Shown here one piece after another: positions 15,653 to 63,218 of a DNA stretch of 64,000 bases. Numbering within the stretch: position 1 is the stretch's first letter; each line of letters opens with the position of its first letter. A program made the translations under genes and the position numbers. Below the pieces are notes generated by a model. It had not been told where the DNA came from. It saw nothing but the letters and a program-made list of their open reading frames with translations, and did no database searches. Origin of the DNA: an uncultured bacterium (lineage in GTDB: Bacteria > AUK180); the NCBI GenBank assembly GCA_937863565.1, contig CALMGJ010000028.1, positions 40,802 to 104,801 of the forward strand, written 5' to 3'.

Positions 15653-15657
15653 AAGCG

Positions 15658-16716: not shown

Positions 16717-16726
16717 TGGGCAGATA

Positions 16727-40332: not shown

Positions 40333-40429
40333 ATCTGCCTCCATTGAGCATATTAATGCAAATTCAATACCATTTGCGGATCGTTTGCTTTTTGCCCTGG
40401 ATTTTATTATAATATGCAAGAGGTGGGGA

Positions 40430-42946: not shown

Positions 42947-43960
42947 TCAGCAGATCCTGGGCGTCAGGGAGAAATCCAGTTCTTTCAGTATCCTTTCTTT
43001 GCCGTTCTTCATTTCGACTGTAAGCTCAGAACCCGAGGGCCTCTCTACTATCCCAATGACAGACGCCCTTGTGTACCCCGTTTTTTTCAATGCGGAGACA
43101 ACTGAACGCGAGATATCCGGGGAGCAGATGATCAGCATCCTTCCTTCGCAGGCGAAGTAAAGATGGTCCATCCCTGTCAGTTCCGCGAGGGCAAGAACAT
43201 TCCTGCCGACCGGAATATCCTTTCCTTTCAATGATATGCTTTTACCTGATTTAACGGCGATCTCATGAAGGTTGTGAGCGATGCCGCCCCTTGTAGGGTC
43301 CCTCATAAAATGTATTTTATCACCGAACCGTTTAACGGCATTGAAAAGGCCTGTCAGTCCCTCGCAGTCAGAACGCATCTTTGTCGAGAACATTCCGGAC
43401 TTTTCATTGAAGATCGCTGCCTCATGCTCTCCTGCAGTACCGTTGATGATAACAGGATCACCTGTTTTAATCCTTTCCGGGGATATATTAAGCACCTTTC
43501 TTCCGATCCCGGAACACGAGATGAAAAGTCCGTCGCATTTCCCTTTCTCAACTACTTTCGTGTCGCCGCAGGCCAGTTCAATACCGCATTTTTCGGCTTC
43601 ACGGGCCATTGATGCCATGATCCGTTCCAGGTCGGAGAAGGAAAAACCCTCTTCAATGATCAGGTTCATCGACATATAAAGCGGATCCCCGCCCTGCGCA
43701 AGGATATCGTTCACGGTTCCGCAAACTGCAAGCTTCCCAATATTCCCGCCCGGGAAGAAAAGCGGGTTCACTGTAAAACTGTCCGACGTGAAGATCAAGG
43801 CGGTTGAGGGCAGATCGATAACGGCGCTGTCGTCAAGCGCTCCGAGAACAGCGCCTTTGAAGTATTTTAATATGCATCTTCCTATCAACTCGGAAGTAAG
43901 GGCACCTCCCGCGCCGTGAGCAAGGCTAATTCTTTCTTTTTTTATATTTATACCAGGCAC
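42947..43960 (-). CDS. hypE: hydrogenase expression/formation protein HypE
   Basis: AIR-synthase-like fold motifs; C-terminal PRIC. Confidence 0.88.
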   Translation of the reverse strand: MPGINIKKERISLAHGAGGALTSELIGRCILKYFKGAVLGALDDSAVIDLPSTALIFTSDSFTVNPLFFPGGNIGKLAVCGTVNDILAQGGDPLYMSMNLIIEEGFSFSDLERIMASMAREAEKCGIELACGDTKVVEKGKCDGLFISCSGIGRKVLNISPERIKTGDPVIINGTAGEHEAAIFNEKSGMFSTKMRSDCEGLTGLFNAVKRFGDKIHFMRDPTRGGIAHNLHEIAVKSGKSISLKGKDIPVGRNVLALAELTGMDHLYFACEGRMLIICSPDISRSVVSALKKTGYTRASVIGIVERPSGSELTVEMKNGKERILKELDFSLTPRIC

Positions 43961-44990
43961 TGCATGCTCCTTCCGATGACACCATGCAAGGTCCGATCGG
44001 ATACCGCGGATTGCATTTCAAAGCAAATGAAGGACAGTCGAACGGCGTTTTTCTGCCCCGTAATATATCACCGCAAATGCATGCGCTCTTCTTTTTTTGT
44101 TTTTTTACGGTCACACCGAACTTCAAAGCCGCATCGTATTCCGAATAACCGGGCCTTATCCCGTAACCGCTTCCCGGTATCATGCCGAAACCCCGCCATT
44201 CCGAATCGCAGACAGAGAAGATTTCATTCATGGTCCTCAGCATCGCGGGATTCCCCTTTTTCCCGGCAGCTTTCGTATAAGCGTTCTTGATCCCTAAAAA
44301 GCCCGTTGAGATCATTCCGAGGCAAACGGTTATCCCGTCTGCCATTTCGCCGTATTCGAAACCGGTAACGGTCCCCCGTATCTTGAGACCTTCGTAGTAA
44401 TCCGTTCCCGTGATCACTGTAACGTGACCGGGCAGAAGAAAAGCGTCTATGTTCAGTTCTCTGTCCGAGGAAAGAAGCTTTAGCGCGGGATACAAGCGTT
44501 TATGGGCCGAGAGAACGCTGAAGTTCCGGAGTTTCCTTCTCTTCGCCTCCTTGATCAGGAATGCGATAAGGGGGGCCGTAGTCTCAAAACCTATTCCCGC
44601 AAAAACAAACTCATTTCCCTGCCTGTCGCATATATCAAATGCGCGGTCGGGACTGTAGACAGTGAATATATCCCCGGCCGGAAGATCGCCAAGTCTCCTC
44701 CCGTTCTCATCAGGCACTTTGATAAGATCTCCGAATGTGATCACTTTAATCCCCTTGCCTGCCAGTTCAAGAAGAGCGGCGATATATCCGCTTTCGGTAA
44801 CACAAACAGGGCAGCCGGGCCCGGATACCAGTTCGATATTAGCGGGAAGGGCCTCTTTGAGCCCCGTTCGGGCCAGATTCATCGTATGCGTACCGCAAAC
44901 TTCCATTATCCTGATCTTCCTTCTGATGGAAGAAGCAAGTATTTCTATGGCGTTAAGAGAATTTGAGGTGTTACTTTCTTTTCTCATCAT
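43926..44990 (-). CDS. hypD: hydrogenase formation protein HypD
   Basis: CGTHT, GPGCPVC, FETTAP motifs. Confidence 0.9.
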   Translation of the reverse strand: MMRKESNTSNSLNAIEILASSIRRKIRIMEVCGTHTMNLARTGLKEALPANIELVSGPGCPVCVTESGYIAALLELAGKGIKVITFGDLIKVPDENGRRLGDLPAGDIFTVYSPDRAFDICDRQGNEFVFAGIGFETTAPLIAFLIKEAKRRKLRNFSVLSAHKRLYPALKLLSSDRELNIDAFLLPGHVTVITGTDYYEGLKIRGTVTGFEYGEMADGITVCLGMISTGFLGIKNAYTKAAGKKGNPAMLRTMNEIFSVCDSEWRGFGMIPGSGYGIRPGYSEYDAALKFGVTVKKQKKKSACICGDILRGRKTPFDCPSFALKCNPRYPIGPCMVSSEGACSAWYKYKKRKN

Positions 44991-45201
44991 CCAGCAAGCT
45001 TTTTAAAAGATCCAGGACCTCTTCGGCCTCCTTTTCACCTATCATCTCTATCGAAAAACCGGCGTGAACCAGTACATGATCGTTCTTTTTCACGCCCGGC
45101 GTGAAAGCGGTGTTTATCAATATCCTGGCACCGTGGATGAGCGCTTCCGCGTGCTGCGCATCAATGATCTTTTTTATCTTTACCGGAATTGCAAGACACA
45201 T
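44971..45201 (-). CDS. hypC: hydrogenase assembly chaperone HypC
   Basis: MCLAIPVKI N-terminus; track ORF extended upstream into hypF. Confidence 0.85.
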   Translation of the reverse strand: MCLAIPVKIKKIIDAQHAEALIHGARILINTAFTPGVKKNDHVLVHAGFSIEMIGEKEAEEVLDLLKSLLDDEKRK

Positions 45202-45205
45202 ATGT

Positions 45206-47452
45206 TCAGATCCTCCTTGAGGCAAGATAGGCCTGACCTGCTGAAATACCGTTATCAGAAGGAGAAAGCTGCCTGTGCGTATGCACTTTGAGATCAGCGC
45301 ATTCAAGCCTTTCCCTGATCAGAGCGGGGATATAAGCATTTAGGAAAACACCTCCGGACAGCAGGACTTCCGACAGGCCGTACTCTTCTCTCATTACCTT
45401 TATCATGTTCACGGCGATATCGGACAATGTGAAAATGAACCGGGAAGAGATCTCGCTTATATCGCGTTTTCTTTCCATAGAATCCGCTATCTCGGCGATC
45501 ATGATATCGGGATCGATGATGTATTTTCCGTCTTTCTGTATTATCCTTATTGAGTACGGGTCTTTTAAAAAATCCTTTTTCACAGCGCTTTCAAGCGCTA
45601 TCGCCGCCTCGCCGGAGAATGTGTTCCAATCCTTCAAACCCGTCAAGAAAGCCACTGCATCGATCAAACGTCCTACTGAAGATGTAAGGGGGCAGTTCAT
45701 TCCGTTGAGGATCATCTTCGAGATCTTTTCCGTAAGGTCATAAGAAAGCGGCACTCTTTTCAATTTCTTCATATCAAGGCGCGCTCTGAGAGCATAAGAA
45801 GCGGCAATCCTCGATATATCGGAAGATGCGGCATCACCTCCGGGAAGCTCGATATATTTAAGGTGCCCGATTCTCTGGAAGCCCTGATGGGAATACACCA
45901 TGAACTCCCCTCCCCACATATTGCCGTCCTCTCCGTAACCGCTGCCGTCCCAGGCTATCCCGATTGCTTTTCCCGTTACTTTATTCTCGTACGCGCAGGA
46001 GGCCAGATGAGCATAGTGATGCTGGATCTTGAGCAAAGGCACTTTCTCTTTTGCCGCCATTTTCTCGAACAGTCCCGTCGTGAGATAACCCGGGTGCTTG
46101 TCGCAAACGAGGATATCGGGAGTGAAGGAGAAAAGCTTCATGAACCGCTTCAGTTCTGAATGATAGGCCTCCAGGTTCTCCTTGTCCTCTATATCCCCCA
46201 AGTATTGGGAAGGATACGCTCTTCCTTCCTTGACAATGCAGAACGAGCAATTCTCCGAAGCGCCGGAGGCAAGTATGTTCTTCCCGCTGCGAAGATCGAA
46301 GGTGGAAGGGACATATCCCCTGCTTCTTCTGAGAAATACCGCTCCGTCCCCGGTCTTTTTGATCACGCTGTCGTCACATCTTGCCAGGATCGAAAGGCCG
46401 TGGGTCAGAACAGGGCCCTTGAAATGCTCTTTTGCTTTTTCATCGGCCGTTACAGTAGGCGCAGAGGCCGGATTGAGGCTCGTGTATACAAGAAGATCCA
46501 AGTGTGAAGAGCCGAAAAGGAGTTTATGCGCAAAAGAGTATGGGAGCATTATCCCTACTCGGTCATTATCGGGAGAGACTGAATTAAGGAAAGACTTCGA
46601 AGGATTTTTCCTAAGAAGGACGATCGGGCGCGCCGGGGAAAGTAAAATAGATTCCGCGGCCGCATCAATGAAAGCATACTGTGATGCCTTATCAATCGAA
46701 GATGCCATGAGTGCAAGCGGTTTTGTTCCCCTTGATTTCAATGATCTTAGCTTTTTAATCGCTTGCGGGTTCTTCGGGTCTCCCACAAGATGAAAGCCTC
46801 CGATCCCTTTTACGGCAATGATATTTCCGGCCTTTATGTGTTCGGCCGCCTTTTTGAAAGCATTTTCTCCCTTGAAATTTCCGAGCCTGTAAGAGGGACC
46901 GCAGGAGGGACAGGTTATCGTCTGAGCATGGAATCTGCGATTTCCGGGGTCCCCGTATTCGATCCCGCATGAAGGGCATATTGAGAATTCGCCATAGGCA
47001 AGGTTTTTCCTGTCATAAGGAAAGGCATTAAGTACGCTGAATCGCGGGCCGCATGATAAACAGGAAGTAAACGGATACTTGAAGCGTTTATTCCCCTTTT
47101 CGTTGAAATCCTCCTCGCATTCCCGGCAGTATGCAAGATCCGGCGGAATCTGCGGATTGGCATTATCTTCTGAAGAGCTTTTTTCAATGAAGAACTGCTT
47201 TCCGGAGACCTTTCCGCCCGGCAACTGTATAATGCTGTCGATCCTGGCACCCGGCGGGGATTCTTTCTTTATCCGGACGATGAGCGCATCGATGTTTCCG
47301 GGTTCCGAGAAAAAAATGACCTCGACCCCCTTTTTCGTGTTCCTTACGGATCCCCGTACCGAAAGTTCATCTGCCTTTCTTTTGATGAAAGGCCTGAAAC
47401 CAACCCCTTGGACAATCCCGCGGATGAGGAACTTCTTACAGATCTTTTCCAA
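45206..47452 (-). CDS. hypF: carbamoyltransferase HypF
   Basis: acylphosphatase N-domain, two CxxC zinc-finger pairs, YrdC-like and Kae1-like domains; 748 aa. Confidence 0.92.
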   Translation of the reverse strand: MEKICKKFLIRGIVQGVGFRPFIKRKADELSVRGSVRNTKKGVEVIFFSEPGNIDALIVRIKKESPPGARIDSIIQLPGGKVSGKQFFIEKSSSEDNANPQIPPDLAYCRECEEDFNEKGNKRFKYPFTSCLSCGPRFSVLNAFPYDRKNLAYGEFSICPSCGIEYGDPGNRRFHAQTITCPSCGPSYRLGNFKGENAFKKAAEHIKAGNIIAVKGIGGFHLVGDPKNPQAIKKLRSLKSRGTKPLALMASSIDKASQYAFIDAAAESILLSPARPIVLLRKNPSKSFLNSVSPDNDRVGIMLPYSFAHKLLFGSSHLDLLVYTSLNPASAPTVTADEKAKEHFKGPVLTHGLSILARCDDSVIKKTGDGAVFLRRSRGYVPSTFDLRSGKNILASGASENCSFCIVKEGRAYPSQYLGDIEDKENLEAYHSELKRFMKLFSFTPDILVCDKHPGYLTTGLFEKMAAKEKVPLLKIQHHYAHLASCAYENKVTGKAIGIAWDGSGYGEDGNMWGGEFMVYSHQGFQRIGHLKYIELPGGDAASSDISRIAASYALRARLDMKKLKRVPLSYDLTEKISKMILNGMNCPLTSSVGRLIDAVAFLTGLKDWNTFSGEAAIALESAVKKDFLKDPYSIRIIQKDGKYIIDPDIMIAEIADSMERKRDISEISSRFIFTLSDIAVNMIKVMREEYGLSEVLLSGGVFLNAYIPALIRERLECADLKVHTHRQLSPSDNGISAGQAYLASRRI

Positions 47453-47457
47453 ACGCC

Positions 47458-48951
47458 CTATCTTGAGAGCTTCTTTATAAGATGCCTTTCATGGTCATAT
47501 ATGTTCAGCGTAAGCGGCATCTGACCTGGAAGAGAATGCGTTGCGCAAGCCATGCACGGGTCATATGCCCTGAAAGCCATTTCGACTTTATTGAGGATCT
47601 CGTCGGAAACCTGGCCTTTTTTAATAAGGTTCTCAGCCGCCTTCGTTATGGACATTGATATCGCCGCGGCATTGCCGTATGTGGCCACAAGCAGGTTCAC
47701 GTAGTTTAAAACACCGCGTTCATCCGTCCGGTAATGATGGATGAGGGTCCCCCTTGGAGCTTCGACAACGCCGATGCCTTCCTCGGGTTTTCTTTCAGGC
47801 AAATTCCTGAGGTCCTTAGATGTAATGCTTTTATCTGACGAGAGTTCAAGCAGTCTTTCTGCGGCATAGAGCATCTCGACGAGCCTTGCCCAATGGAATG
47901 CCAAGGTGTGATGTGAAGGTTTGCCCCCCAGTGTCTTGAACATCGCGTCATGCTCCTTATCCGCGTATTCGGTAGCCATGCCGTCAGAGGCATTGAGTCT
48001 CGCAAGAGGGGCCACTCTGTAAACACCGCTCTTTTCACCGTCCGTGAACCCTTTCCAGCCTATCTTTTTCAGATAAGGGAATTTCACATAGCTCCATTCC
48101 TCCTTGTGTTCTGCGATATGGTCCCCGAAATCTTTCACATCGAACTTGGCGAACTCCCGGCCGTCCGGATTTACTACGCGGATCTTCCCGTCATAGAAAT
48201 TGACCTTATTGTTCTTGTCTACAAGACCCATATAATATGTGCGATGCCTGTAGATGTCGCCGGTGATGAGCTTGACATATTCTTCATTCTTGAGAACGAT
48301 ATTTCGGAAGGCATCAAGCGAGAATTTCGCAAAATCGATCGCATCTCGCGCGATACCTTCAATATTCTTTCTTTCATTTTCATCAAGCCCTTTCGAAACA
48401 CCGCCGGGAAGTCCGCATACGGGATGTATCACGCGACCGCCGAAGAATGTGATGATGCTGCGCAAACGCTTCCGCATTTCAATGACCCTTTTACCCGTTT
48501 CAAGGCCGACCTTCTCGATCACGCCCAGTATATTCCTGCTTCCCGCGGGAGCGCCCGGGCCTACGATGAAATCGGGACTTCCCAGAAAATAGAAATGCAG
48601 GGCATGGTCCTCGACCATGAAGGCGCAGTATATGATCTCTCTTATCTTCCTGGCGGTTTCCGTAGGTTCTATCTTGTAAAGGTCGTCCAGGGCCTTAGTA
48701 GAGGCCATATGATGCGCTGTCGGGCATACACCGCAGATCTTAGGCGTGATCCTCGGCATCTCTTCGGCGGCACGGCCGAGCGAGAACACTTCAAATCCTC
48801 TTAATTCGGGGATCTGCAGATAGGCGTTCTTCACATTGCCTTTATCGTCAAGGAATATCTCTATCTTGCCGTGGCCTTCAAGCCTTGTTATGGGATCGAT
48901 CGTGATCTTCTTCACTTCTTCCTCCGGGTCATCCTCTGAGCATCCATCCAT
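47458..48951 (-). CDS. [NiFe]-hydrogenase large subunit (group 3 / Mvh-like)
   Basis: RLEGHGK, KICGVCPTAHH (L1), C-terminal DPCMACATHS. Confidence 0.9.
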   Translation of the reverse strand: MDGCSEDDPEEEVKKITIDPITRLEGHGKIEIFLDDKGNVKNAYLQIPELRGFEVFSLGRAAEEMPRITPKICGVCPTAHHMASTKALDDLYKIEPTETARKIREIIYCAFMVEDHALHFYFLGSPDFIVGPGAPAGSRNILGVIEKVGLETGKRVIEMRKRLRSIITFFGGRVIHPVCGLPGGVSKGLDENERKNIEGIARDAIDFAKFSLDAFRNIVLKNEEYVKLITGDIYRHRTYYMGLVDKNNKVNFYDGKIRVVNPDGREFAKFDVKDFGDHIAEHKEEWSYVKFPYLKKIGWKGFTDGEKSGVYRVAPLARLNASDGMATEYADKEHDAMFKTLGGKPSHHTLAFHWARLVEMLYAAERLLELSSDKSITSKDLRNLPERKPEEGIGVVEAPRGTLIHHYRTDERGVLNYVNLLVATYGNAAAISMSITKAAENLIKKGQVSDEILNKVEMAFRAYDPCMACATHSLPGQMPLTLNIYDHERHLIKKLSR

Positions 48952-49583
48952 TCCGAGACTTTATGTATTCCGGACCCTGTCTTTCCGGACGTTTCGATCA
49001 CTTTCGCTTTCGGATTGACCGATCTGAGATTCTTAAGAAAGGTCTTTTTATCGAAATCGACATATGGCAGAAGGTCTATCTTGTTCAGGATGACAAGATC
49101 CGCTTTATTGAATGCCAGCGGGTATTTAGCAGGTTTATCATCGCCTTCCGGTACGGAAAGAACGACAATGTTCCGATGGGAGCCGGTATCGAATTCTGCA
49201 GGGCAGACAAGATTGCCGATATTCTCGATAATGACGGTTTTCACTTTTTTCAGATCGAGTTCCCCGAGAGCCGTCCTTATCCAGGAAGCCTCGAGATGGC
49301 AGTCGCCGCCGAACGGCCCCGTATTGATCGAAACCACTTTGACCTTTTTCTTTGAGATGCGTTCCGAATCGAGAGTCGTCTCGATATCCCCTTCCAGTAC
49401 TGCGACGGAACTCCTATCCTTCATTGTTCCGACAATGCTTTCGATGATCGTCGTTTTCCCTGAACCGGGGGAGCTCATCATATTGAAGGCTGTGATGCCT
49501 TTTCCGTTGAACCATTCCCTCGTACTTCCGGCAAGCTGATCGTTCGCTTTCAAAACACTTGTCAGGATCTTGATCTTATTCAA
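48912..49583 (-). CDS. hypB: hydrogenase nickel-incorporation GTPase HypB
   Basis: GSGKTT P-loop, ENIGNLVCP, NKIDL. Confidence 0.9.
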   Translation of the reverse strand: MNKIKILTSVLKANDQLAGSTREWFNGKGITAFNMMSSPGSGKTTIIESIVGTMKDRSSVAVLEGDIETTLDSERISKKKVKVVSINTGPFGGDCHLEASWIRTALGELDLKKVKTVIIENIGNLVCPAEFDTGSHRNIVVLSVPEGDDKPAKYPLAFNKADLVILNKIDLLPYVDFDKKTFLKNLRSVNPKAKVIETSGKTGSGIHKVSEWMDAQRMTRRKK

Positions 49584-49918
49584 TCATTAACCTCCACATA
49601 TTCGATGTTCAATTCCCTTCCTTTTACTATTTCAACGTCCCGGGAAGGACATTCGGGGCATTGAAGGACGAACCTGTCCTTAAGTACCGCACCGGCACCG
49701 CATTTTCTGCATCTTACGGACACCTTCACTCTTTTGATCTTGAGTTCCGCATCTTCCAGGGCGGTCCCTTTCTTTGCTATATCGAAAGAGAAACGCAACG
49801 CCTCAACTGAAACGCCTGATATATCCCCGACAGCCATCTTAAGCGCCCTGATCTTTTTATCCGGCACTTTTTCCGTGATGATATCGAATATATTCATGAC
49901 GATGCTCAGTTCGTGCAA
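49580..49918 (-). CDS. hypA: hydrogenase nickel-insertion protein HypA
   Basis: MHELSI N-terminus; CRKCG...CPEC zinc site. Confidence 0.9.
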   Translation of the reverse strand: MHELSIVMNIFDIITEKVPDKKIRALKMAVGDISGVSVEALRFSFDIAKKGTALEDAELKIKRVKVSVRCRKCGAGAVLKDRFVLQCPECPSRDVEIVKGRELNIEYVEVND

Positions 49919-50367: not shown

Positions 50368-50375
50368 TCCCGGGT

Positions 50376-51725: not shown

Positions 51726-51738
51726 AGTTACCTCCTCC

Positions 51739-53406: not shown

Positions 53407-53407
53407 C

Positions 53408-54178: not shown

Positions 54179-54190
54179 ATGAAGCCTCCC

Positions 54191-55084: not shown

Positions 55085-55093
55085 ATTCTTCCC

Positions 55094-55516: not shown

Positions 55517-56480
55517 CGAGATTTGAGGCCGGAAGGCTGTACATATAGAAGAGGCCGACAGGGTCAGGTATCGAATCGATCAGCCGGGACACATCCTCCT
55601 CGCTTGCGATCTCTTCTTCATCTATTCCAAGAAGCGACGCAATGGCGGAGAGTATCTTCGCCCCCTGGTCATAAACCCGAGGGGAAGGTCCGAAGCATCC
55701 CCGGCAGGGCATATTGGCATTGATGCAACGCTCGCCGCAGCCGGAGCGGGTGGCCGGTCCCAAACAAATTATACCTTCGGAAAGGAAGCATTTCTCGGGA
55801 TCATGTATGACCTCATGAGGCCTTTTCAACTCTTTTATACTGAATTTATCCGGTTTTTTATCCCGTAGAGGGCATGTGTCGCAAAGTGATTTATCCGAAG
55901 CGAACACTGTGCCCTTTGGAGGTAATTCGCCCTTCAGAAAAGCAGTTAACCCTTTAAGTATGATGTCGGCCGGCGGCGCGCAGCCAGGGATATAGTAGTC
56001 CACATCGATGGTTTGGTCCAAAGTCCTTACATATTCGCATATTTCCGGAATCTCCAGTTCGTTCCCATCCGCTTTTGAGAGCGGTTTCGGCACCGTTCTA
56101 TCGTCATTCGTTTCAAGGTCTTCATAAATAAGTTTCAGAAGTTTTTCTTTTGCGAATTGATTGCCGAGTCCCGGTATACCCCCGATATGCGCGCAGGAAC
56201 CGAAAGCTGCCACATACGCGGACTTCTTTCTCAATAATCTCACCATCTCTTCCTGTTCCCTTGTCCTGATCGCACCGTTAATGAAACTTACCGCAATGCT
56301 CCGGTCGGACAATTTTTCGACATCGCTCCTTTTAAAATCAAGGGCGACCGGCCAGAAAACGATGTCCACTTTTTCGGCTACCTGGAGCAGGTCTTCATTG
56401 AGATCCACAACGGCTTCTTCGCAACCGCCGCAGGAAGCGCACCAGTAGAAAGCCACTTTCGGTTTACTCATAGTATTCAC
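55476..56480 (-). CDS. [NiFe]-hydrogenase small subunit (group 3 / MvhG-like)
   Basis: VAFYWCASCGGCEEA proximal-cluster motif, GSCAHIGG, C-terminal Cys clusters; GTG start at 56480 or ATG at 56471. Confidence 0.85.
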   Translation of the reverse strand: MNTMSKPKVAFYWCASCGGCEEAVVDLNEDLLQVAEKVDIVFWPVALDFKRSDVEKLSDRSIAVSFINGAIRTREQEEMVRLLRKKSAYVAAFGSCAHIGGIPGLGNQFAKEKLLKLIYEDLETNDDRTVPKPLSKADGNELEIPEICEYVRTLDQTIDVDYYIPGCAPPADIILKGLTAFLKGELPPKGTVFASDKSLCDTCPLRDKKPDKFSIKELKRPHEVIHDPEKCFLSEGIICLGPATRSGCGERCINANMPCRGCFGPSPRVYDQGAKILSAIASLLGIDEEEIASEEDVSRLIDSIPDPVGLFYMYSLPASNLGDKRRNDEQKDNS

Positions 56481-56538
56481 CTGTTAATAAACGAAATGGA
56501 TTATATTTAGCATTATATATCTCAAAATCATTTTTATA

Positions 56539-56955
56539 TCATGCATTCTTCGGAGGGCCAAGTTCGATCATCTTTTCAATGGTAGAATTTACAACGGATG
56601 CGAATCTTTCTCCCTCGCTTGCCGACACCCAGTCTATGGTCAGCCTCTCCTTCTCATAACCCATATCCTCAAGCACTCTTTTAAGAAGAAGCGTTCTTCT
56701 GAGAGCTTTATAATTCCCGTTTTTATAGTGGCAGTCTCCGGGATGGCAGCCGAGGATGAGGACGCCCCACGCACCTTTCTTGAAAGCTTCCAATACGGTA
56801 TCCGGTTCTACTCTGCTTGAACACATTGTCCTTATGATCCTGAAATACGGTTTTATGTCCATTTTCGATACACCGGCATTATCCGCGCCGGCATACGAGC
56901 ACCAGTTGCAGCAGAAAACCACAAGTTTCGGTCTTTCTATTGTTCCCTTCTTCAT
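56539..56955 (-). CDS. MvhD-like hydrogenase iron-sulfur subunit
   Basis: LVVFCCNWCSYAGADNAG motif; ATG at 56953-56955 overlaps HdrA stop (ATGA). Confidence 0.85.
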   Translation of the reverse strand: MKKGTIERPKLVVFCCNWCSYAGADNAGVSKMDIKPYFRIIRTMCSSRVEPDTVLEAFKKGAWGVLILGCHPGDCHYKNGNYKALRRTLLLKRVLEDMGYEKERLTIDWVSASEGERFASVVNSTIEKMIELGPPKNA

Positions 56956-58889
56956 AATATCGCCCTGAGCATCTCTTTGATCTGTTCGGTATTGAACCAT
57001 TTCTGCTGGGCGGCGCCGGACGGACAGCTTCCGGCGCATGAACCGCAGCCCTTACAGAGCATTTCATTGACCTTGGCGAATTTCCTTGCCCCCTCTGCCT
57101 CGAAGGCGATGGCATCATACGGACAAACGCTGATACAGACCCCGCAGCCGGCGCACAGCTCCTCGTCTATTGAGGCGGTTATCGGCTCCGCCTCGTATTC
57201 GCCCTTGTTCATGAGCCTGATCGCACGGGCGGCAGCGGCAGAGGCCTGGGCAACCGTATCGGGTATATCCTTAGGACCCTGGACAGTACCCGCGAGAAAG
57301 ATGCCCTCTGTAAGGGTATCGACCGGTTTAAATTTCGGATGTGCTTCGGCAAGAAAACCGTCCGTGGTCCTTCCTATCCTTAGGATATCGCGTATCTTCT
57401 TCGTCCCTTCGCTTGGGACCATGCCGGTAGAAAGTATCACCGTATCGAACTCCCCTTCGATGAGACTTCTAGTAAGCGTATCTTCAACTTTCAATATAAG
57501 TTTTTTATTCTTGGGATTTTCCTGTATTTCCGCCGTCCGGCCTCTTATATATTTCACGCCATTCTTCTGGGCCCTTTTATAATACTCCTCGAAGCCTTTC
57601 CCGTAGGCTCGTAGATCCGTATAGAAGATGTAGATATCCCGTTCGGGCCTGTTCCTTTTCAGAAGCTGCGCGAGTTTTGTAGCATACATGCAGCACACTC
57701 TCGAACAGTACTCCTTTTTTATCTGCTCATCCCGCGATCCTACGCATTGGATGAAAGCGATCTTATTGCCGATATCGACAAGGTTTTTCCCGGATTCCTC
57801 ATGTTCCACAAGCCTTTCCAATTGAAGCGCAGTAAGAACATTTTCGTATTTCCCGAATCCGAATACCGGTTTTTCTGCCGGATTGAAGATATCGAAACCC
57901 GTCGCCACGATTATCGTGTCTACGGTGATATCCATCGTTTTCTCGTACTGATCGTAATTTATGGCCTTCGCATCGCAGGCGTCCCTGCATTTGGCGCAGG
58001 CAAGAGGAAGTAGGCCGAGACAATTCTCTATATCAAGCGTAAATGAATGAGGTACGGCGATATCAGTGGGAATATAGATCGCTTTTCTGAACGAGAGACC
58101 TTCATTGAACTCATTGGGGACATCCACCGGACAGACCTCGGAGCAATCCCCGCAGCATGTGCATTTCGAAGGGTCTACATAAGTAGGTTTGATCTTTATC
58201 TTCGCATTGTAATTGCCGAGATATCCGGAAATTGCAATAACCTCGGAATATGTCAGAAGTTCGATGTTCGGATGCGCAGCGACATCGGACATCTTTGGAG
58301 AGAGGATGCAGGCGGAACAATCCTCTGTCGGGAATGTTTTTGAAAGTTGGGCCATATGCCCACCGATCGTAGGCTTCTCCTCTACAAGATATACTTTGAA
58401 CCCCGCATCGCCGAGGTCAAGCGCGGCCTGAATACCGGCAATGCCGCCGCCGATCACGAGAACTCTTTTCCCGATGGGCATTTTTGCTTTACTAAGCGGA
58501 GTATCCAACCTGACCTTCGAAATGGCTATATTAGTGAGGTCCTTAGCTTTTTCCGTTGCTTCCTCGGGATAATTGATGTGAGCCCATGAACACTGTTCCC
58601 GGATATTGGCCATTTCAAGAACATAAGGATTGAGACCCGCGCGCTCCATCATTTTCATGAAAGTCTGGCCCTGGAATGAAGGCGAGCAGGCTGCTATGAC
58701 GATCTTGTCCAGCTTGAATTCCCTGATATCGCTTAAAACGAGCATCTGGCCTTCATTAGAACAGATATGGCCGTTGTCGCGTACAAGTACCACATCTTTC
58801 TGTTTTTTTGCGAATTCGACCGCTTCTCCGATATTGACAATATCGGAAATATTTCCCCCGCAATGGCAAATATATACACCTATTCTCAT
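56952..58889 (-). CDS. HdrA-like FAD/Fe-S flavoprotein (heterodisulfide reductase subunit A family)
   Basis: VLVIGGGIAGIQAALDLGDAG FAD fold; several 4Fe-4S motifs (CTCCGDCSEVCP, CAGCGVCISVCP, CKGCGSCAGSCP); 645 aa. Confidence 0.88.
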   Translation of the reverse strand: MRIGVYICHCGGNISDIVNIGEAVEFAKKQKDVVLVRDNGHICSNEGQMLVLSDIREFKLDKIVIAACSPSFQGQTFMKMMERAGLNPYVLEMANIREQCSWAHINYPEEATEKAKDLTNIAISKVRLDTPLSKAKMPIGKRVLVIGGGIAGIQAALDLGDAGFKVYLVEEKPTIGGHMAQLSKTFPTEDCSACILSPKMSDVAAHPNIELLTYSEVIAISGYLGNYNAKIKIKPTYVDPSKCTCCGDCSEVCPVDVPNEFNEGLSFRKAIYIPTDIAVPHSFTLDIENCLGLLPLACAKCRDACDAKAINYDQYEKTMDITVDTIIVATGFDIFNPAEKPVFGFGKYENVLTALQLERLVEHEESGKNLVDIGNKIAFIQCVGSRDEQIKKEYCSRVCCMYATKLAQLLKRNRPERDIYIFYTDLRAYGKGFEEYYKRAQKNGVKYIRGRTAEIQENPKNKKLILKVEDTLTRSLIEGEFDTVILSTGMVPSEGTKKIRDILRIGRTTDGFLAEAHPKFKPVDTLTEGIFLAGTVQGPKDIPDTVAQASAAAARAIRLMNKGEYEAEPITASIDEELCAGCGVCISVCPYDAIAFEAEGARKFAKVNEMLCKGCGSCAGSCPSGAAQQKWFNTEQIKEMLRAIL

Positions 58890-59458
58890 TTAACAACCCC
58901 TTTCGGCTTTTTCCCGGCGGTCCGTTCGAGGGCATGAGCGTATCCCTTTTCAAAAGCGGAAACATTCAAAGCGATGAATTTTTCCGGAACTGATTCTTTA
59001 ATGGCCCTTAACATTGCTTCCTTCGATGCGATCTTCGCCTTTGCCGTTATGAACCCGAGCATTACGATATTGGCTACGATCTTCTTTCCCATCTCTTCGG
59101 CAAGTCTTGTACAGGGAATATCGAAAACCTTCGTTTTTGCATGATGTCTTACGTTTTTAACAAGGTCGGTTTCATAGAAGACCGTCCCTCCCTCGTCTAC
59201 GATGCCCTTGAAAGTATCGTACCCTTCCTGCGAAAGAGCGATGAGCACATCCGCTTTATCTACTAGCGGATAATTAACTTCTGTCCCGCTTATCACGAGC
59301 TGGGAGCTGCAGGCTCCGCCTCTCGATTCCGGGCCGTAGGCTTCGGTCATGGCCGAGAACTTACCGTCGTAGATAGAGACGGCCTTACCCAGGATATATG
59401 CCATCAGTATTATCCCCTGTCCGCCGAATCCGGCTATCTTGACCCTCTGTTCTTCCAT
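58886..59458 (-). CDS. 2-oxoacid:ferredoxin oxidoreductase gamma subunit
   Basis: IAGFGGQGIILMA signature. Confidence 0.85.
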   Translation of the reverse strand: MEEQRVKIAGFGGQGIILMAYILGKAVSIYDGKFSAMTEAYGPESRGGACSSQLVISGTEVNYPLVDKADVLIALSQEGYDTFKGIVDEGGTVFYETDLVKNVRHHAKTKVFDIPCTRLAEEMGKKIVANIVMLGFITAKAKIASKEAMLRAIKESVPEKFIALNVSAFEKGYAHALERTAGKKPKGVVK

Positions 59459-59465
59459 AAGGTTC

Positions 59466-60344
59466 CTATTCCTCCATATGCTTTTTTTCGAGATATATAT
59501 TCGGGAATCTTTTCTTGAGACCGGCCTGGACAGTATCCCAGAAAGTGGGTTTCTCGATGTTCACGAATTCCCCGCAGACGATCTTTCCGTCCATATCCAA
59601 TGGTATCTTGGTCGGGTCCGCCGTATGGTCTATTACTGACCTTCCCGCAAATTCCTTGAGAAGGTCAAGACCTGTGCCGCCCCTGTTCTTCCTTGCATAG
59701 ACAGTAGGGCATGGGGAGACGACCTCGATAAAGGAGAATCCCTTTCTTTTAAAGGCAGTGGATACCGACTCCGACAGGCGCCTTGTATGAAGCGCTGTCC
59801 ATCTGGCCACATAGGAAGCGCCGGCAGATGCGGCTATGCCCACAAGATTGAAAGGCTCCTCGCAGTTGCCGTAAGGTGCAGTGGAACTATAGGCGGAGAT
59901 CGGAGTGGTCGGCGCATTCTGGCCGCCCGTCATCCCGTAGATGAAATTATTCACGCAGATCACGGTCAGGTCCACATTCCTCCTAGCCGCATGTATCAAG
60001 TGATTACCGCCGATCGCGAAGAGGTCACCATCGCCGGAAAAAACGACCACTTTGAGATCCTGATTGGCAAGTTTAATGCCTGTCGCGAAAGGAATGGCGC
60101 GGCCGTGAGTTGTATGGTACGAATCGAGTTTGATATATCCTGCGATCCTTGCCGTACAGCCTATACCGGACACAACAACGGTGCTGTTATAGTCGGCTCC
60201 GGCCAATTTCAGCCCCTCCACAAATGCGGTCATAGCGGTCCCCAGGCCGCAGCCCGAGCACCAGATATGAGGCATTCTGTCCATCCTCAGAATATCTCCC
60301 ATGGGATGGGATTCGGGATTCACGATCTTATTTTTTCTTGCCAT
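59466..60344 (-). CDS. 2-oxoacid:ferredoxin oxidoreductase beta subunit (TPP-binding)
   Basis: WCSGCG, GDGD TPP motif. Confidence 0.88.
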   Translation of the reverse strand: MARKNKIVNPESHPMGDILRMDRMPHIWCSGCGLGTAMTAFVEGLKLAGADYNSTVVVSGIGCTARIAGYIKLDSYHTTHGRAIPFATGIKLANQDLKVVVFSGDGDLFAIGGNHLIHAARRNVDLTVICVNNFIYGMTGGQNAPTTPISAYSSTAPYGNCEEPFNLVGIAASAGASYVARWTALHTRRLSESVSTAFKRKGFSFIEVVSPCPTVYARKNRGGTGLDLLKEFAGRSVIDHTADPTKIPLDMDGKIVCGEFVNIEKPTFWDTVQAGLKKRFPNIYLEKKHMEE

Positions 60345-61791
60345 GGGCCGCCTCCGTTATCGCTTTTACGATATCCTCGGTCCTGATGATGCCGCCCCCG
60401 GCATGTCCGATCCCGGCCACGGTGCAATTCTTCCCTGAACAACGCTCCACTTCCAGAACGATCTGGCCGAGGTTCATTTCCGGGACTACGAAACCGGATA
60501 CGCGCTTTGAAAGTTCTCTAATCCTTTTCTCCGGGAAAGGCCAGACCGTGACCAGCCTGAGAGAACCCACTTTGATCCCTTTCTTTTTCGCAATGGCGAT
60601 AGCAGGTGCGGATAACCTTGAAGTGATGCCATAGGAAATGACAATGACATCGGCTTTTTCGGTATCTTTCTCCTCGAGGATGATGATATCGTCGGCATGG
60701 GCCTTTATCTTATTCACAAGCCGATTTACGAGTTTCTGATGCGCTTCCTCGCTCATATCGGGATATCCCCTTTCATCGTGAGTCAGCCCGGTAGTATGAT
60801 AACGGTATCCGTCCCCCGCTTTGGCGAATTCGGGTACAAGGTCGGGGCCGGCCTCATAAGGTTTGTATTTATCCGCGGTCTTGCGCGTATATTTCCTTTC
60901 GACGAGTTTGAGCTTCTCGACCGGGGGGATCACTACTTTTTCGGTCATATGCCCTACGATCCCGTCGCTCATTATGAATACCGGAAGCCTGTATTTCTCG
61001 GAATAGTTGAACGCCATGACCGTGAGGTCGAACATTTCCTGGCATGATTTCGGGCACAGAGCGATGCTTCCGTAATCGCCGTGAGAGCCCCATCTGGCCT
61101 GCATCATATCGGATTGTCCCCACGATGTGGGAAGACCTGTGGAAGGCGAGCCTCGCTGAACATTCACTATTACCGCCGGGACCTCCATCATCATGCCGAG
61201 GCCGATATTCTCGTTCATAAGCGAAATACCGGGGCCGGAGGTGGCCGTCATCGATTTTCTTCCCGCCCAGGAAGCGCCCAAAATGCCGGCAATGGATGCG
61301 ATCTCGTCCTCGAACTGGATGAAAACCCCTTTCAGCCGAGGCAGGACGACAGACATATGTTCGGCGATCTCGGAGGCCGGCGTTATCGGGTAAGCTCCGA
61401 AAAACCGGCAACCCGCCGCCAGAGCGCCTTCAGCACAGGCGATATCTCCCTGCATGAAGAATTCGCCCCTTAAGGGGCTCGGGAAAAATTCGATGTTCTG
61501 TTTCCGCCTGGGTTCCTGTATCGTTATCCTCTGTGTGTTCTCATGTTCAAGGTATATGGCAAAATCGGGGCAGATCCTCTCGCAGAGGCCGCAGAAAGTG
61601 CATGCATCCTCATTGGCCACTTTAGGGGGGTGATATCCTTTTGTATTGAACCCTTCCGATCTAACTAGAACATCGCGCGGGCAGTAATCGATGCAGTAAT
61701 CGCATCCCTTGCACCGGTCAGCGATCACTACAACACGGCCGGGAAGCTTTTTATGTTTGATCTTTACCTTCGGATTACCGTATGGCTGCAT
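60328..61791 (-). CDS. 2-oxoacid:ferredoxin oxidoreductase alpha subunit with fused N-terminal 2x[4Fe-4S] ferredoxin (delta) domain
   Basis: CKGCDYCIDYCP and CTFCGLCERICP, then alpha-type YPITPASE core. Confidence 0.88.
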   Translation of the reverse strand: MQPYGNPKVKIKHKKLPGRVVVIADRCKGCDYCIDYCPRDVLVRSEGFNTKGYHPPKVANEDACTFCGLCERICPDFAIYLEHENTQRITIQEPRRKQNIEFFPSPLRGEFFMQGDIACAEGALAAGCRFFGAYPITPASEIAEHMSVVLPRLKGVFIQFEDEIASIAGILGASWAGRKSMTATSGPGISLMNENIGLGMMMEVPAVIVNVQRGSPSTGLPTSWGQSDMMQARWGSHGDYGSIALCPKSCQEMFDLTVMAFNYSEKYRLPVFIMSDGIVGHMTEKVVIPPVEKLKLVERKYTRKTADKYKPYEAGPDLVPEFAKAGDGYRYHTTGLTHDERGYPDMSEEAHQKLVNRLVNKIKAHADDIIILEEKDTEKADVIVISYGITSRLSAPAIAIAKKKGIKVGSLRLVTVWPFPEKRIRELSKRVSGFVVPEMNLGQIVLEVERCSGKNCTVAGIGHAGGGIIRTEDIVKAITEAAHGKKK

Positions 61792-61799
61792 CTTCGCTC

Positions 61800-62363
61800 C
61801 TATTTTTTCGTTTTCAGGAATTCTTCAACGCCTTTTTTATAAAGGTCATCACCGTACATGTCATTTGCCACTGTACAGGGAAAATCCTCAACGGTAAGTT
61901 TCCTTATCGCTTCAGCCTTCAATTCCTCGTATGCTATGACCTCGGCGTTCTTGATCGTCTTGGCGATCAAAGCAGCTGCGCCGCCTATTGCTGCGAGATA
62001 TACTCCTTTATTCTCGATAAGCGAGTTCACGACATCCTGTCCTCTATTACCTTTCCCTATGCAGGCCTTGAGGCCGTTTCGGAGAAGTATGGGAGTGTAC
62101 GGGTCCATCCTGTAGCTCGTCGTGGGACCTGCAGATCCGATCGGCATGCCTGGTTTTGCGGGAGAGGGTCCCACATAGTAGATCACGGCGCCTTTAAGAT
62201 CAAAGGGCAGTTTCTCCCCTTTCTCCAGAAGCTCCACAAGCTTTTTATGTGCGGCATCACGGGCAGTATATATGATCCCGCTCAGATAAACGGTATCGCC
62301 GATCCTGAGTTCTTTAATGATATCATCGGTCAGAGGTGTTTTTATCTTATGTATCTTGCTCAT
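61800..62363 (-). CDS. class I fumarate hydratase, beta (C-terminal) subunit
   Basis: Fe-S hydro-lyase tartrate/fumarate family beta motifs (YYVGPSPAKPG). Confidence 0.85.
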   Translation of the reverse strand: MSKIHKIKTPLTDDIIKELRIGDTVYLSGIIYTARDAAHKKLVELLEKGEKLPFDLKGAVIYYVGPSPAKPGMPIGSAGPTTSYRMDPYTPILLRNGLKACIGKGNRGQDVVNSLIENKGVYLAAIGGAAALIAKTIKNAEVIAYEELKAEAIRKLTVEDFPCTVANDMYGDDLYKKGVEEFLKTKK

Positions 62364-62372
62364 TCCTGACTC

Positions 62373-63218
62373 CTATAATATTATTTCCTTATGTCTGGCG
62401 GCATGGCAATTGATATTGATGGCCACCGGCATGGATGCGATATGACACGGCACATGCTCGATGAAAACTTCGAGCGCGGTGGTCTCTCCTCCGAATCCCA
62501 TCGCGCCGATGCCGAGTTCATTGATCTTCTTCAGGATCTCTATTTCGAGTTCCGCGTATTTCTGATCAGCGTTTCTTTCTCCGAATCTTCGCAGCAGCGC
62601 CTTCTTGGCCAGTATGGCGCTCTGCTCGAAATCCCCTCCTATCCCGATCCCGACGATCACCGGCGGGCAGGGATTGCCGCCTGACCTTTTCACACGGTCA
62701 ACGGCAAAGTCTATTATGCCTTTTGTTCCGTCAGCGGCCTTCATCATCCTCACTTCGCTCATATTCTCGGAGCCCCCGCCTTTCGGGGCGGCAGTCATTT
62801 TCACGTTCTCACCCGGAACGATCTTTATGTGCAGCACCGGGGGATTATTGTCACCGGTGTTCTTTCTTTCCATTACGGGATCGCCGACCATGGATTTTCT
62901 CAGATAGCCCTCCGAATAACCTTTCCTTACGCCTTCAGCGATCGCTTTTTCGAAATCCCCTCCCGAAAAATGGACATCCTGGCCTATCTCCATGAAAAGA
63001 ACCGCAACTCCCGTATCCTGACATAGCGGCATCTTCTCAGAGGCCGAAATATCATGGTTTTTCAGGATTATCTTGAGGATCTCTTTGGCCGTTTCCGAAG
63101 TTTCGCGCTCGAGCGCTTTCTTCAATGATCCGGCCACATCTTCGGGAATGTAGTAATTGGCATCGATGAACAGTTTGCAGACGGCATCCGACAGTTCGGA
63201 GACATTGATTTCCCTCAT
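62373..63218 (-). CDS. class I fumarate hydratase, alpha (N-terminal) subunit
   Basis: Fe-S hydro-lyase alpha motifs (CQDTGV, PCPPV). Confidence 0.85.
   Translation of the reverse strand: MREINVSELSDAVCKLFIDANYYIPEDVAGSLKKALERETSETAKEILKIILKNHDISASEKMPLCQDTGVAVLFMEIGQDVHFSGGDFEKAIAEGVRKGYSEGYLRKSMVGDPVMERKNTGDNNPPVLHIKIVPGENVKMTAAPKGGGSENMSEVRMMKAADGTKGIIDFAVDRVKRSGGNPCPPVIVGIGIGGDFEQSAILAKKALLRRFGERNADQKYAELEIEILKKINELGIGAMGFGGETTALEVFIEHVPCHIASMPVAININCHAARHKEIIL

Follow-up and report, generated by a model that had tools for sequence, protein, structure and literature searches.

Introduction

The closest described relatives of the gene cluster reported here are assemblies built around the heterodisulfide reductase subunits HdrABC. 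In methanogens, these subunits are joined to the [NiFe]-hydrogenase MvhADG (Methanothermococcus wolfeii, PDB 5ODC). The 'succinate operon' of Pseudoclostridium thermosuccinogenes holds fumarase, FlxABCD-HdrABC and a two-gene fumarate reductase (Frd), and it was proposed to couple the oxidation of NADH to the reduction of fumarate and ferredoxin (Fd). The reductive tricarboxylic acid (rTCA) clusters of tubeworm symbionts, Thioflavicoccus and Bipolaricaulia hold korABCD and tfrAB intermingled with flxABCD-hdrABC, and the encoded proteins were proposed to form a complex that feeds both the fumarate reductase and a 2-oxoglutarate:ferredoxin oxidoreductase (OGOR), with co-expression data for these genes from Endoriftia. 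To our knowledge, no Hdr-linked fumarate reductase has been shown biochemically to bifurcate. Here we describe a run of 21 genes in a 64,000-nucleotide (nt) stretch of contig CALMGJ010000028.1 from an uncultured bacterium (the whole stretch is called the window below), in which genes for an Mvh-type hydrogenase and HdrABC-like proteins stand together with those of a putative soluble fumarate reductase.

Two further lines of literature touch on this combination. Surveys of metagenome-assembled genomes (MAGs) of WOR-3 and Cloacimonadota described bacterial MvhADG-HdrABC as reducing CoM-S-S-CoB, the heterodisulfide of coenzymes M and B (CoM and CoB), and listed Sdh/Frd separately, and in Culexarchaeia SdhA was found beside a membrane hydrogenase with HdrBC and HdrA2B2C2 (PMC9723716). 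A full-text literature search, with subscription journals mostly outside its reach, found no description of an Mvh-linked soluble version. A first-pass annotation of the window, made from the letters alone, had put forward the idea of an H2-driven Hdr-Frd module; the idea is less new than was implied, because the NADH-dependent (Flx) version is already published, and it is the Mvh version that the search did not find. The cluster is best read as a hydrogen-driven variant of the published, still hypothetical Flx-Hdr-Tfr/OGOR model.

With the methanogen complex, the cluster shares MvhA, MvhG and MvhD, a full-length HdrA, an HdrC with two [4Fe-4S] clusters, an HdrB with two CCG motifs and the expected flavin-based bifurcation from H2. 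It differs in its host, which is a bacterium of a deep unclassified lineage, in its HdrB- and HdrC-like proteins, which score far below the equivalog cut-offs (the HdrC-like protein is also about 50 amino acids (aa) shorter), and in its gene order, with mvhG inside the hdr genes and mvhA eight genes downstream. In addition, FrdB/FrdA-like genes stand directly after hdrB, and the proposed high-potential acceptor is therefore fumarate (+33 mV) and not CoM-S-S-CoB. With the Flx-Hdr-Tfr systems, likened here by their published descriptions, it shares fumarase and/or OGOR, HdrABC and a two-gene soluble Frd, as well as the proposed logic of bifurcation to fumarate and ferredoxin with the ferredoxin feeding OGOR. 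Where those systems have the FlxABC NADH dehydrogenase, however, the cluster has the Mvh [NiFe]-hydrogenase with a full maturation set, implying that the donor is H2 rather than NADH, and the window holds no ATP-citrate lyase. The five-subunit Frd of Hydrogenobacter thermophilus is likewise soluble and multi-subunit and serves a reductive TCA route, but its donor is NADH and its genes are dispersed in that genome (Miura et al. 2008, as summarised in PMC13147460).

Results

A 21-gene cluster for a putative soluble H2:fumarate oxidoreductase

The 21 genes form an unbroken co-directional run on the minus strand, from 63218 down to 42947, in the order fumA, fumB, the delta-alpha, beta and gamma genes of a 2-oxoacid:ferredoxin oxidoreductase (OFOR), hdrA, mvhD, mvhG, HdrC-like, HdrB-like, FrdB-like, FrdA-like, malic enzyme, maturation protease, hypA, hypB, mvhA, hypF, hypC, hypD and hypE. 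From this gene content, the motifs of the products and their conserved synteny, we propose that the cluster encodes a soluble, membrane-independent H2:fumarate oxidoreductase that probably bifurcates to ferredoxin, and we give this proposal a probability of roughly 55%; complex formation, the direction from H2 to fumarate, bifurcation and the use of the ferredoxin by OFOR are its inferred parts. The first-pass annotation had placed the cluster at exactly the coordinates of the open reading frame (ORF) listing and named every gene as Pfam and NCBIfam now identify it (the maturation protease by NCBIfam only), but it counted 20 genes where the ORF listing, and its own list, give 21. Of its overall interpretation, the identities, the solubility and the links of Hdr and of H2 to Frd are supported, the two links having gained considerably from the comparison with other loci, and the other parts rest on inference.

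Membrane-spanning hydrophobic segments are absent from all 21 proteins and the cluster contains no anchor gene, in line with the soluble Frd suggested at first pass. We also looked for a NAD_binding/FlxA-like gene among the 21 with Pfam and found none; MvhA and MvhG stand in its place. A classical membrane-bound quinol:fumarate or succinate:quinone reductase (QFR/SQR) was ruled out, since anchors, hydrophobic segments, the covalent-FAD His and the C-terminal flavoprotein domain are lacking and the third cluster motif of the iron-sulfur subunit has four cysteines.

A putative split TfrB and an FrdA-like flavoprotein

When aligned to E. coli FrdB and SdhB, the FrdB-like protein conserves the [2Fe-2S] ligands, and its third motif, CIQCGMCAVRCP, has four cysteines where the E. 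coli proteins have a three-cysteine [3Fe-4S] motif, which predicts a [4Fe-4S] cluster at this position. TfrAB of Methanothermobacter, a soluble fumarate reductase with an HdrB-type CCG module, offers a close parallel. Its TfrB is reported to have a four-cysteine third motif as well, and TfrA is the best NCBIfam match of the window flavoprotein. The FrdB-like protein fits the N-terminal part of the TfrB model and the HdrB-like protein its C-terminal half, suggesting that the two genes amount to a split TfrB; they stand in reversed order and reach just 38 and 36 bits against a cut-off of 385, and a CoM/CoB context is not evident in the window.

We aligned the FrdA-like protein with E. coli FrdA, SdhA and NadB. 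Its H331, T347/E348, R372, H445 and R479 correspond to H232 (H233 when Met1 is counted), T244/E245, R287, H355 and R390 of E. coli FrdA, and these catalytic residues (His, Thr-Glu, Arg, His, Arg) are invariant in 30 homologues. Asn occupies the position of the covalent-FAD His44/45, and the FAD is predicted to be non-covalent. Unidirectional fumarate reductases, such as soluble Frds and the H44 mutants of FrdA, typically bind their FAD non-covalently and oxidise succinate poorly. The protein begins with a conserved extension of ~97 aa and lacks a C-terminal helical domain of ~130 aa, which is covered by the TfrA model. All its NCBIfam scores are below cut-off (TfrA, 283 bits against 718; SdhA-FrdA, 275 against 567; NadB (TIGR00551), 254 against 453). 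In a Foldseek search with an AlphaFold2 model of moderate confidence (predicted local distance difference test (pLDDT) score 64), FrdA/SdhA were the top matches and NadB appeared from rank 41, and nothing reliable was returned for the N-terminal extension.

HdrA retains the features of a bifurcating subunit

HdrA aligns over its full length (residues 2-641) with M. wolfeii HdrA (5ODC_A) at 51% identity and 745 bits, and 27 of its 28 cysteines align to cysteines of that protein, spanning the N-terminal, inserted-ferredoxin, FAD-proximal and C-terminal ferredoxin clusters; the FAD domain, both ferredoxin domains and all [4Fe-4S] ligands are in place. This makes the bifurcation proposed at first pass plausible, and the NCBIfam HdrA2 score of 848 bits is below the cut-off of 1100. 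The HdrC-like protein contains two CxxCxxCxxxCP motifs (TIGR03290 HdrC, 74 bits; cut-off 160). The HdrB-like protein matches methanogen HdrB over its full length at 113 bits with all ten cluster cysteines aligned, and its NCBIfam scores for HdrB (TIGR03288, 133 bits against 345) and SdhE (115 against 500) are far below cut-off. The latter match recalls the type E SQR and the Campylobacter methylmenaquinol:fumarate reductase (MFR) (SdhABE), in which a flavoprotein and an iron-sulfur protein are likewise combined with an HdrB-like CCG subunit. SdhE, however, is a membrane-associated quinone-side subunit, whereas the window protein has no quinone context and is joined to HdrC and HdrA.

The hydrogenase is group 3c-like

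The large subunit MvhA has its metal ligands at C73/C76 in KICGVC (L1) and C466/C469 in DPCMACATH (L2), followed by a 25-aa C-terminal extension. Its top matches in PDB are 7t2r_D (397 bits) and MvhA 5odc_F (388 bits); the deposited title for the 7T2R chain reads just 'NiFe hydrogenase large subunit', and we take the entry to be the bifurcating NiFe-HydABCSL complex. The VhuA and VhuG models of NCBIfam give 414 bits for MvhA (cut-off 800) and 200 bits for MvhG (cut-off 450).

The HdrC-HdrB-FrdB-FrdA block recurs across bacteria and Bathyarchaeota

To place the cluster among its relatives, we mapped the window proteins onto 29 FrdA-anchored loci (identified by L numbers), of which 23 came from species-representative genomes and six from contigs with selected homologues. 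The FrdB-like gene is directly upstream of FrdA in 27 of the 29, the other two being truncated. HdrB/HdrC-like genes are present near FrdA in 21 and lie directly upstream of FrdB in 19, HdrA is near FrdA in 18, fumarase in nine, and OFOR and malic enzyme in seven each. Bathyarchaeota (L015-L019 and L023) share the HdrC-HdrB-FrdB-FrdA block, with HdrA, fumarase and malic enzyme nearby, and this synteny in two domains of life supports the functional Hdr-Frd link that had been read from the window.

An Mvh-type [NiFe]-hydrogenase is found in six of the FrdA-anchored loci (L002, L003, L010, L030, L031 and L032) and in L034, which was anchored on the hydrogenase, so that the pairing of FrdAB with this hydrogenase occurs in seven independent loci beyond the window; a crude neighbour-joining tree of FrdA spreads the hydrogenase-linked loci over at least four distinct branches. 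The arrangement is not a product of chance, given that 17 genes of L003 are collinear with those of the window and that dozens of loci contain the core. The hypFCDE adjacency is specific to the window and was not seen downstream in L003. In L031 and in L032 (Planctomycetota), FrdB-FrdA come immediately after a canonical MvhGA-HdrCBA-MvhD-protease block. L034 (Cloacimonetes) has the content of the window plus succinyl-CoA synthetase in another order (OFOR, HdrC, HdrB, HdrA, MvhD, FrdB, FrdA, MvhG, MvhA, protease, SucC, SucD, FumA, FumB, malic enzyme), and its FrdA is just 54% identical. Other input modules also occur: Flx-like NAD(P)H genes in L026, whose FrdA is 71% identical to that of the window, and GltD-like and FrhB-like flavoproteins in L025, while no input module is visible in L024 or L001.

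For a reciprocal test, we inspected the neighbourhoods of five hydrogenase large-subunit homologues, ~70% identical and from different phyla. One of the five (L034) has Frd; the other four pair with NuoEF-like genes or with HdrA-TusA and chemotaxis genes. A hydrogenase clade dedicated to Frd was thereby ruled out. The hydrogenase is thus a general input device and HdrA-HdrCB-FrdBA a general output device, the window being one recurring combination of the two.

Relatives of the FrdA-like protein number in the thousands at ~70% identity, with MAG labels including Aerophobetes, KSB1, Marinimicrobia, WOR-3, Planctomycetota and Deltaproteobacteria. MvhA homologues are also ~70% identical across many phyla, and the methionyl-tRNA synthetase (MetRS) of the contig (37819-39360) is at most 48% identical to that of any named lineage. 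The difference suggests that the redox modules are under very strong constraint, are often transferred horizontally, or both.

Some neighbourhoods of the hydrogenase homologues are of interest in themselves. L035 (Nitrospirota, 6546-13973) and L037 (Elusimicrobiota, 2060-16744) contain an HdrA-MvhD-MvhG-MvhA-TusA block whose large subunit is ~70% identical. A gene for a methyl-accepting chemotaxis protein comes next, in L037 together with a full che operon, and HdrBC and Frd are absent; this is a different use of the hydrogenase-HdrA module. L031 contains a second [NiFe]-hydrogenase (small subunit, large subunit and protease; 4268-8593, minus strand) whose genes share a block with those for MTHFR and a DUF5981 protein, which suggests a hydrogenase linked to methylene-tetrahydrofolate reductase near the Mvh-Hdr-Frd genes.

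Fumarase, OFOR and malic enzyme

Both fumarase subunits exceed their NCBIfam cut-offs. The OFOR delta-alpha protein exceeds the cut-off of one NCBIfam model (NF006412, 557 bits; cut-off 411), but the 2-oxoglutarate-specific models all remain below theirs (NF007206, 389 bits against 579 for delta-alpha; 246 against 364 for the 2-oxoglutarate Fd oxidoreductase beta model, the best match of the beta protein), and these models do not assign 2-oxoglutarate as the substrate. The malic enzyme matches NF009501 at 345 bits over the N-terminal 413 model residues. The window has a single alpha/beta/gamma OFOR set, whereas the OFOR beside FrdA in L010 (14352-18928), L011, L013 and L020 is a five-gene set of two alpha-like, two beta-like and one gamma gene. 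In the WOR-3 contig L036, a 577-aa protein (4292-6025) joins a response-regulator receiver to an entire malic enzyme, and its gene adjoins acetate kinase, upstream of Mvh genes.

Gene junctions, starts and flanks

All junctions in the cluster overlap or are at most 12 nt long, with the sole exception of an AT-rich gap of 58-67 nt between mvhD and mvhG. The short spacing and the ATGA overlap of the hdrA stop with the mvhD start had both been noticed at first pass, and the FrdA-like gene starts 1 nt after the FrdB-like gene. Several of the longest-ORF starts are too long, and those of mvhD, mvhA and hypC were re-set: mvhD to 56955, which yields exactly the 138-aa protein that the protein collection lists; mvhA to a probable GTG at 48915, which forms a GTGA overlap with the hypB stop and gives a 485-aa product that is also on record; and hypC to an internal ATG at 45201 (MCLAIP...). 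Table 1 lists the features with the re-set starts.

Table 1. Features of the cluster, in order of transcription.
Feature	Product	Position	Strand	Profile or motif evidence
Candidate promoter	sigma-70-type, TTGGAT-17 nt-(TGt)TATAAT	63287..63315	-	read from the sequence; consensus match only
fumA	class I fumarate hydratase alpha, 281 aa	62373..63218	-	Pfam Fumerase 383 bits; NF004885 409 bits (cut-off 276)
fumB	class I fumarate hydratase beta, 187 aa	61800..62363	-	Fumerase_C; NF005310 277 bits (cut-off 238)
OFOR delta-alpha	fused delta (2x[4Fe-4S]) and alpha, 487 aa	60328..61791	-	Fer4 (residues 20-80), POR_N, PFOR_II
OFOR beta	292 aa	59466..60344	-	TPP_enzyme_C
OFOR gamma	190 aa	58886..59458	-	Pfam POR
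hdrA	FAD/6x[4Fe-4S] flavoprotein, bifurcating HdrA type, 645 aa	56952..58889	-	
mvhD	[2Fe-2S] connector, 138 aa	56539..56955	-	Pfam FlpD 172 bits, full profile
mvhG	group-3 [NiFe]-hydrogenase small subunit, about 331 aa	55476..56471	-	Oxidored_q6; 14 Cys
HdrC-like	short 2x[4Fe-4S] protein, about 135 aa	55094..55501	-	Fer4_8/Fer4_17
HdrB-like	two complete CCG motifs, 297 aa	54191..55084	-	Pfam CCG x2
FrdB-like	iron-sulfur subunit, [2Fe-2S] and two 4-Cys [4Fe-4S] motifs, 256 aa	53408..54178	-	Fer2, Fer4
FrdA-like	flavoprotein, 555 aa	51739..53406	-	FAD_binding_2 at residues 100-484 only
Malic enzyme	short NAD(P)-dependent decarboxylating type, about 449 aa	50376..51725	-	Pfam malic, Malic_M
Maturation protease	[NiFe]-hydrogenase maturation endopeptidase, 153 aa	49906..50367	-	TIGR00072 60 bits (cut-off 47); no Pfam match
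hypA		49580..49918	-	Pfam HypA; TIGR00100 89.5 bits (cut-off 88.1)
hypB		48912..49583	-	TIGR00073 250 bits (cut-off 121)
mvhA	group-3c-like [NiFe]-hydrogenase large subunit, 485 aa	47458..48915	-	Pfam NiFeSe_Hases
hypF		45206..47452	-	TIGR00143 680 bits (cut-off 466)
hypC	76 aa	44971..45201	-	TIGR00074 54.5 bits (cut-off 48), aligned from residue 36 of the long ORF
hypD		43926..44990	-	Pfam HypD 379 bits; TIGR00075 338 bits (cut-off 193)
hypE		42947..43960	-	AIRS, AIRS_C; position after hypD

The candidate promoter lies ~70 nt upstream of fumA and has a perfect extended -10 element and a weak -35 element; the promoter scan picked another, overlapping match (63310-63282). Inside the cluster, promoter-like and terminator-like matches in a consensus scan occur at the level of shuffled sequence, and the scans are therefore uninformative for or against a single operon. 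One long operon is compatible with the sequence.

At the downstream edge, a gene pair on the plus strand (40016-42917), encoding a solute-binding protein (SBP_bac_3) and then a PAS-HisKA-HATPase kinase, converges on hypE. DctB/DctD-like pairs of a Cache-sensor kinase and a sigma-54 regulator are found beside the clusters of L030 and L036, and a DASS (Na_sulph_symp/CitMHS) transporter is beside that of L032; these kinases and the transporter hint at regulation or uptake tied to C4-dicarboxylates. At the upstream edge, 250 nt of non-coding DNA separate fumA from a ZIP-family transporter ORF (63468-63962, minus strand) that matches only the C-terminal half of the profile; the ORF may be truncated, or its start misplaced. 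Another ZIP gene is near the L034 cluster (L034 21449-21464), which may reflect coincidence or metal supply.

Discussion

Proposed mechanism and energetics

In the oxidoreductase that we propose, MvhA/MvhG would oxidise H2 and pass the electrons via the [2Fe-2S] cluster of MvhD to the FAD of HdrA. HdrA would send one electron uphill through its ferredoxin domains, most likely to a ferredoxin, and the other downhill to the short HdrC-like protein and on to the two non-cubane clusters of the HdrB-like protein. From there, the FrdB-like subunit, with its [2Fe-2S] and two [4Fe-4S] clusters, would carry the electron to the non-covalent FAD of the FrdA-like subunit, where fumarate would be reduced to succinate. 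Fumarase and malic enzyme would supply the fumarate from malate/pyruvate, and the hyp products and the protease would mature the hydrogenase. The reduced ferredoxin could be spent by the adjacent OFOR or by ferredoxin-dependent enzymes elsewhere in the genome; hand-over to the neighbouring OFOR is plausible, given the repeated co-location of the two. Because the HdrB-like and FrdB-like proteins together resemble a split TfrB, such a complex would be the methanogen chain from Mvh-Hdr through the heterodisulfide to Tfr, short-circuited without thiol cofactors.

The energetics of such a reaction are comfortable. With E0' values from the literature of -414 mV for H2, -400 to -500 mV for ferredoxin and +33 mV for fumarate, and with ferredoxin set at about -500 mV, simple arithmetic gives about -70 kJ for 2 H2 + fumarate + Fd(ox) under standard conditions and about -24 kJ at 10 Pa H2.

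Several observations weigh against this proposal. The HdrB-like, HdrC-like, FrdA-like and FrdB-like proteins are so far below the NCBIfam equivalog cut-offs that their substrates are not assignable by homology. Eight genes separate mvhA from mvhG. L001, the nearest locus by FrdA identity (79%), has no mvhG at the equivalent place. L010 has no HdrB/C beside FrdB, implying that the proposed electron wire is not universal. The presence of Frd in only one of the five hydrogenase-anchored loci likewise means that the hydrogenase clade is not dedicated to fumarate. Two further points, a Gln in the active-site region of the FrdA-like protein and the malic enzyme, count at the same time for the first of the alternatives below.

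Alternative explanations

The alternative that survives best is that the same chain runs backwards under the low H2 of syntrophic growth, which we consider unlikely. OFOR would then oxidise 2-oxoglutarate from glutamate/amino-acid fermentation, yielding reduced ferredoxin, and the FrdAB-like pair would oxidise succinate; HdrA would confurcate the high-potential electrons of succinate with those of ferredoxin, Mvh would release H2, and fumarate would be converted via malate to pyruvate by malic enzyme. We keep this oxidative direction as the main rival because OFOR, Frd, fumarase and malic enzyme, joined by SucCD in L024, L030 and L034, make up exactly the steps from 2-oxoglutarate to pyruvate, and because the residue of the FrdA-like protein that corresponds to Glu49 of E. 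coli FrdA and Gln50 of SdhA is Gln (MAQGG). Gln at this position reportedly biases the E. coli enzyme towards succinate oxidation (the work behind PDB 2B76). Malic enzymes usually decarboxylate and so fit an oxidative pathway better, and relatives are found in Cloacimonetes, Atribacteria and Aerophobetes, candidate phyla that live by fermentation or syntrophy. An oxidative route with succinate oxidation coupled to H2 was also proposed for Culexarchaeia (PMC9723716). We nevertheless favour the reductive direction for three reasons. The covalent-FAD His, which Sdh/Frd need to oxidise succinate efficiently, is replaced by Asn. The reverse energetics are marginal, since the same arithmetic (Fd at -500 mV) requires H2 at or below ~0.1 Pa for confurcation at equal fumarate and succinate, and the reaction becomes slightly exergonic (about -5 kJ) only at a fumarate/succinate ratio of ~0.001 and 1 Pa H2. 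Finally, all characterised group 3c hydrogenases consume H2 in vivo (PMC11216029).

It is less probable still that the system does not bifurcate, HdrA being a mere wire that reduces no ferredoxin, or that a thiol stands between its two halves. In the thiol-mediated version, Mvh-HdrABC would reduce a disulfide carrier, either a DsrC/TusA-like protein or a thiol of low molecular weight, and the FrdAB-like pair would oxidise it again, in the way that CoM/CoB connect Hdr with Tfr in Methanothermobacter. Such a carrier would suit the HdrB-like protein, in which none of the ten cysteines of the substrate-binding non-cubane clusters is missing. A DsrC-like intermediate is allowed for in the model published for Endoriftia, and TusA is encoded beside MvhA in the related hydrogenase loci L035 and L037. 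However, one CCG protein would have to serve both half-reactions and the cluster encodes no small carrier, all gaps being at most 67 nt, which makes this version unlikely; the correspondence of the HdrB-like gene to the fused CCG domain of TfrB argues instead for direct wiring. HdrA has also kept the two ferredoxin domains of the low-potential branch, one inserted and one C-terminal, which speaks against a role without bifurcation, and an unsplit drop of 450 mV would waste energy that related systems conserve.

It is very improbable that the FrdAB-like pair is not a fumarate reductase at all but an L-aspartate oxidase-like or other 2-enoate/amino-acid oxidoreductase, with the fumarase a merely metabolic neighbour. 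The similar scores of the flavoprotein for the TfrA, SdhA/FrdA and NadB models, the close scores of Sdh/Frd and NadB among PDB sequences (183-157 bits) and the unexplained N-terminal extension and lacking C-terminal domain leave room for such an enzyme. Yet the NadB-specific Glu121 column (E. coli numbering) holds Gly while all the dicarboxylate-binding and proton-transfer residues are kept, an SdhB/TfrB-like partner, which NadB does without, is encoded 1 nt upstream in 27 of the 29 loci, bacteria and Bathyarchaeota alike have a class I fumarase next to the pair, and Foldseek ranks FrdA/SdhA before NadB. The identity as L-aspartate oxidase, which the first-pass annotation had named as a possible refutation, was ruled out by the Glu121 column, the obligatory Fe-S partner and the fumarase adjacency.

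We give equally little credence to mere co-location of independent enzymes in an 'anaerobic redox island' without a complex or a dedicated electron path, which the uninformative promoter and terminator counts, the AT-rich gap before mvhG, the other partners of the hydrogenase clade and the restriction of the hypFCDE adjacency to the window would allow, because the genes overlap or are 1-12 nt apart through HdrA/MvhD and HdrC/HdrB/FrdB/FrdA, the HdrCB-FrdBA block is kept in different domains of life amid changing surroundings, L034 conserves the content in shuffled order, and mvhG is interleaved within the hdr genes.

Implications of the proposed H2-dependent fumarate reductase complex

Mvh-Hdr sets have been reported from many uncultured anaerobic bacteria and are routinely annotated as heterodisulfide-reducing, though CoM/CoB synthesis is not known there. 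In the window and at least seven other loci, a dedicated soluble Frd directly behind the Mvh-Hdr complex offers a concrete, testable acceptor. We tentatively extend this to the possibility, on which we would not yet rely, that fumarate is the physiological high-potential acceptor for the widespread Mvh-Hdr (and Flx-Hdr) class in non-methanogenic bacteria and Bathyarchaeota, with the non-cubane clusters of HdrB acting as a pure electron relay into the split-TfrB/FrdA without a thiol cofactor. If so, many annotations of bacterial MvhADG-HdrABC as reducing CoM-S-S-CoB would be wrong.

An H2:fumarate oxidoreductase of the proposed kind would amount to a quinone-free and membrane-free 'fumarate respiration' that stores the energy span between H2 and fumarate as reduced ferredoxin, for use in Rnf/Ech-type energy conservation or by the adjacent 2-oxoacid synthase. 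It would add an H2-dependent member to flavin-based electron bifurcation and would show a way in which fermenters without quinones could gain energy from the reduction of fumarate. With the OFOR, it would provide a hydrogen-driven reductive branch from pyruvate to 2-oxoglutarate, so that the bifurcation-assisted reductive TCA branch proposed for NADH-driven sulfur oxidisers would extend to bacteria of sediments and digesters that are driven by hydrogen. With its constant HdrA-HdrCB-FrdBA core and exchangeable donor modules, the family is also a useful model for modular evolution.

Other features of the window

Neither a tRNA nor an Rfam match was found within the 64-kb window. On the minus strand at 9544-11867, an EcoRI-type adenine methyltransferase (436 bits) adjoins a GmrSD_N/HNH endonuclease-like protein in a low-GC patch (~8-12 kb; regional GC ~0.40 against ~0.47 elsewhere), and the pair looks like a horizontally acquired restriction/defence islet. 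Between 16727 and 35293 (minus strand), at least nine paralogous TPR_12-rich proteins of 330-516 aa form an unusual expansion, interspersed with genes for a 713-aa double-AAA ATPase (AAA_2/AAA_lid_9), an FmdE-domain/zinc-finger protein, a peroxiredoxin and DapB. At 2446-3849 (minus strand), methionyl-tRNA formyltransferase (Formyl_trans_N/C) is fused to Amidase_2 (N-acetylmuramoyl-L-alanine amidase), an odd fusion whose gene adjoins that of a peptide deformylase.

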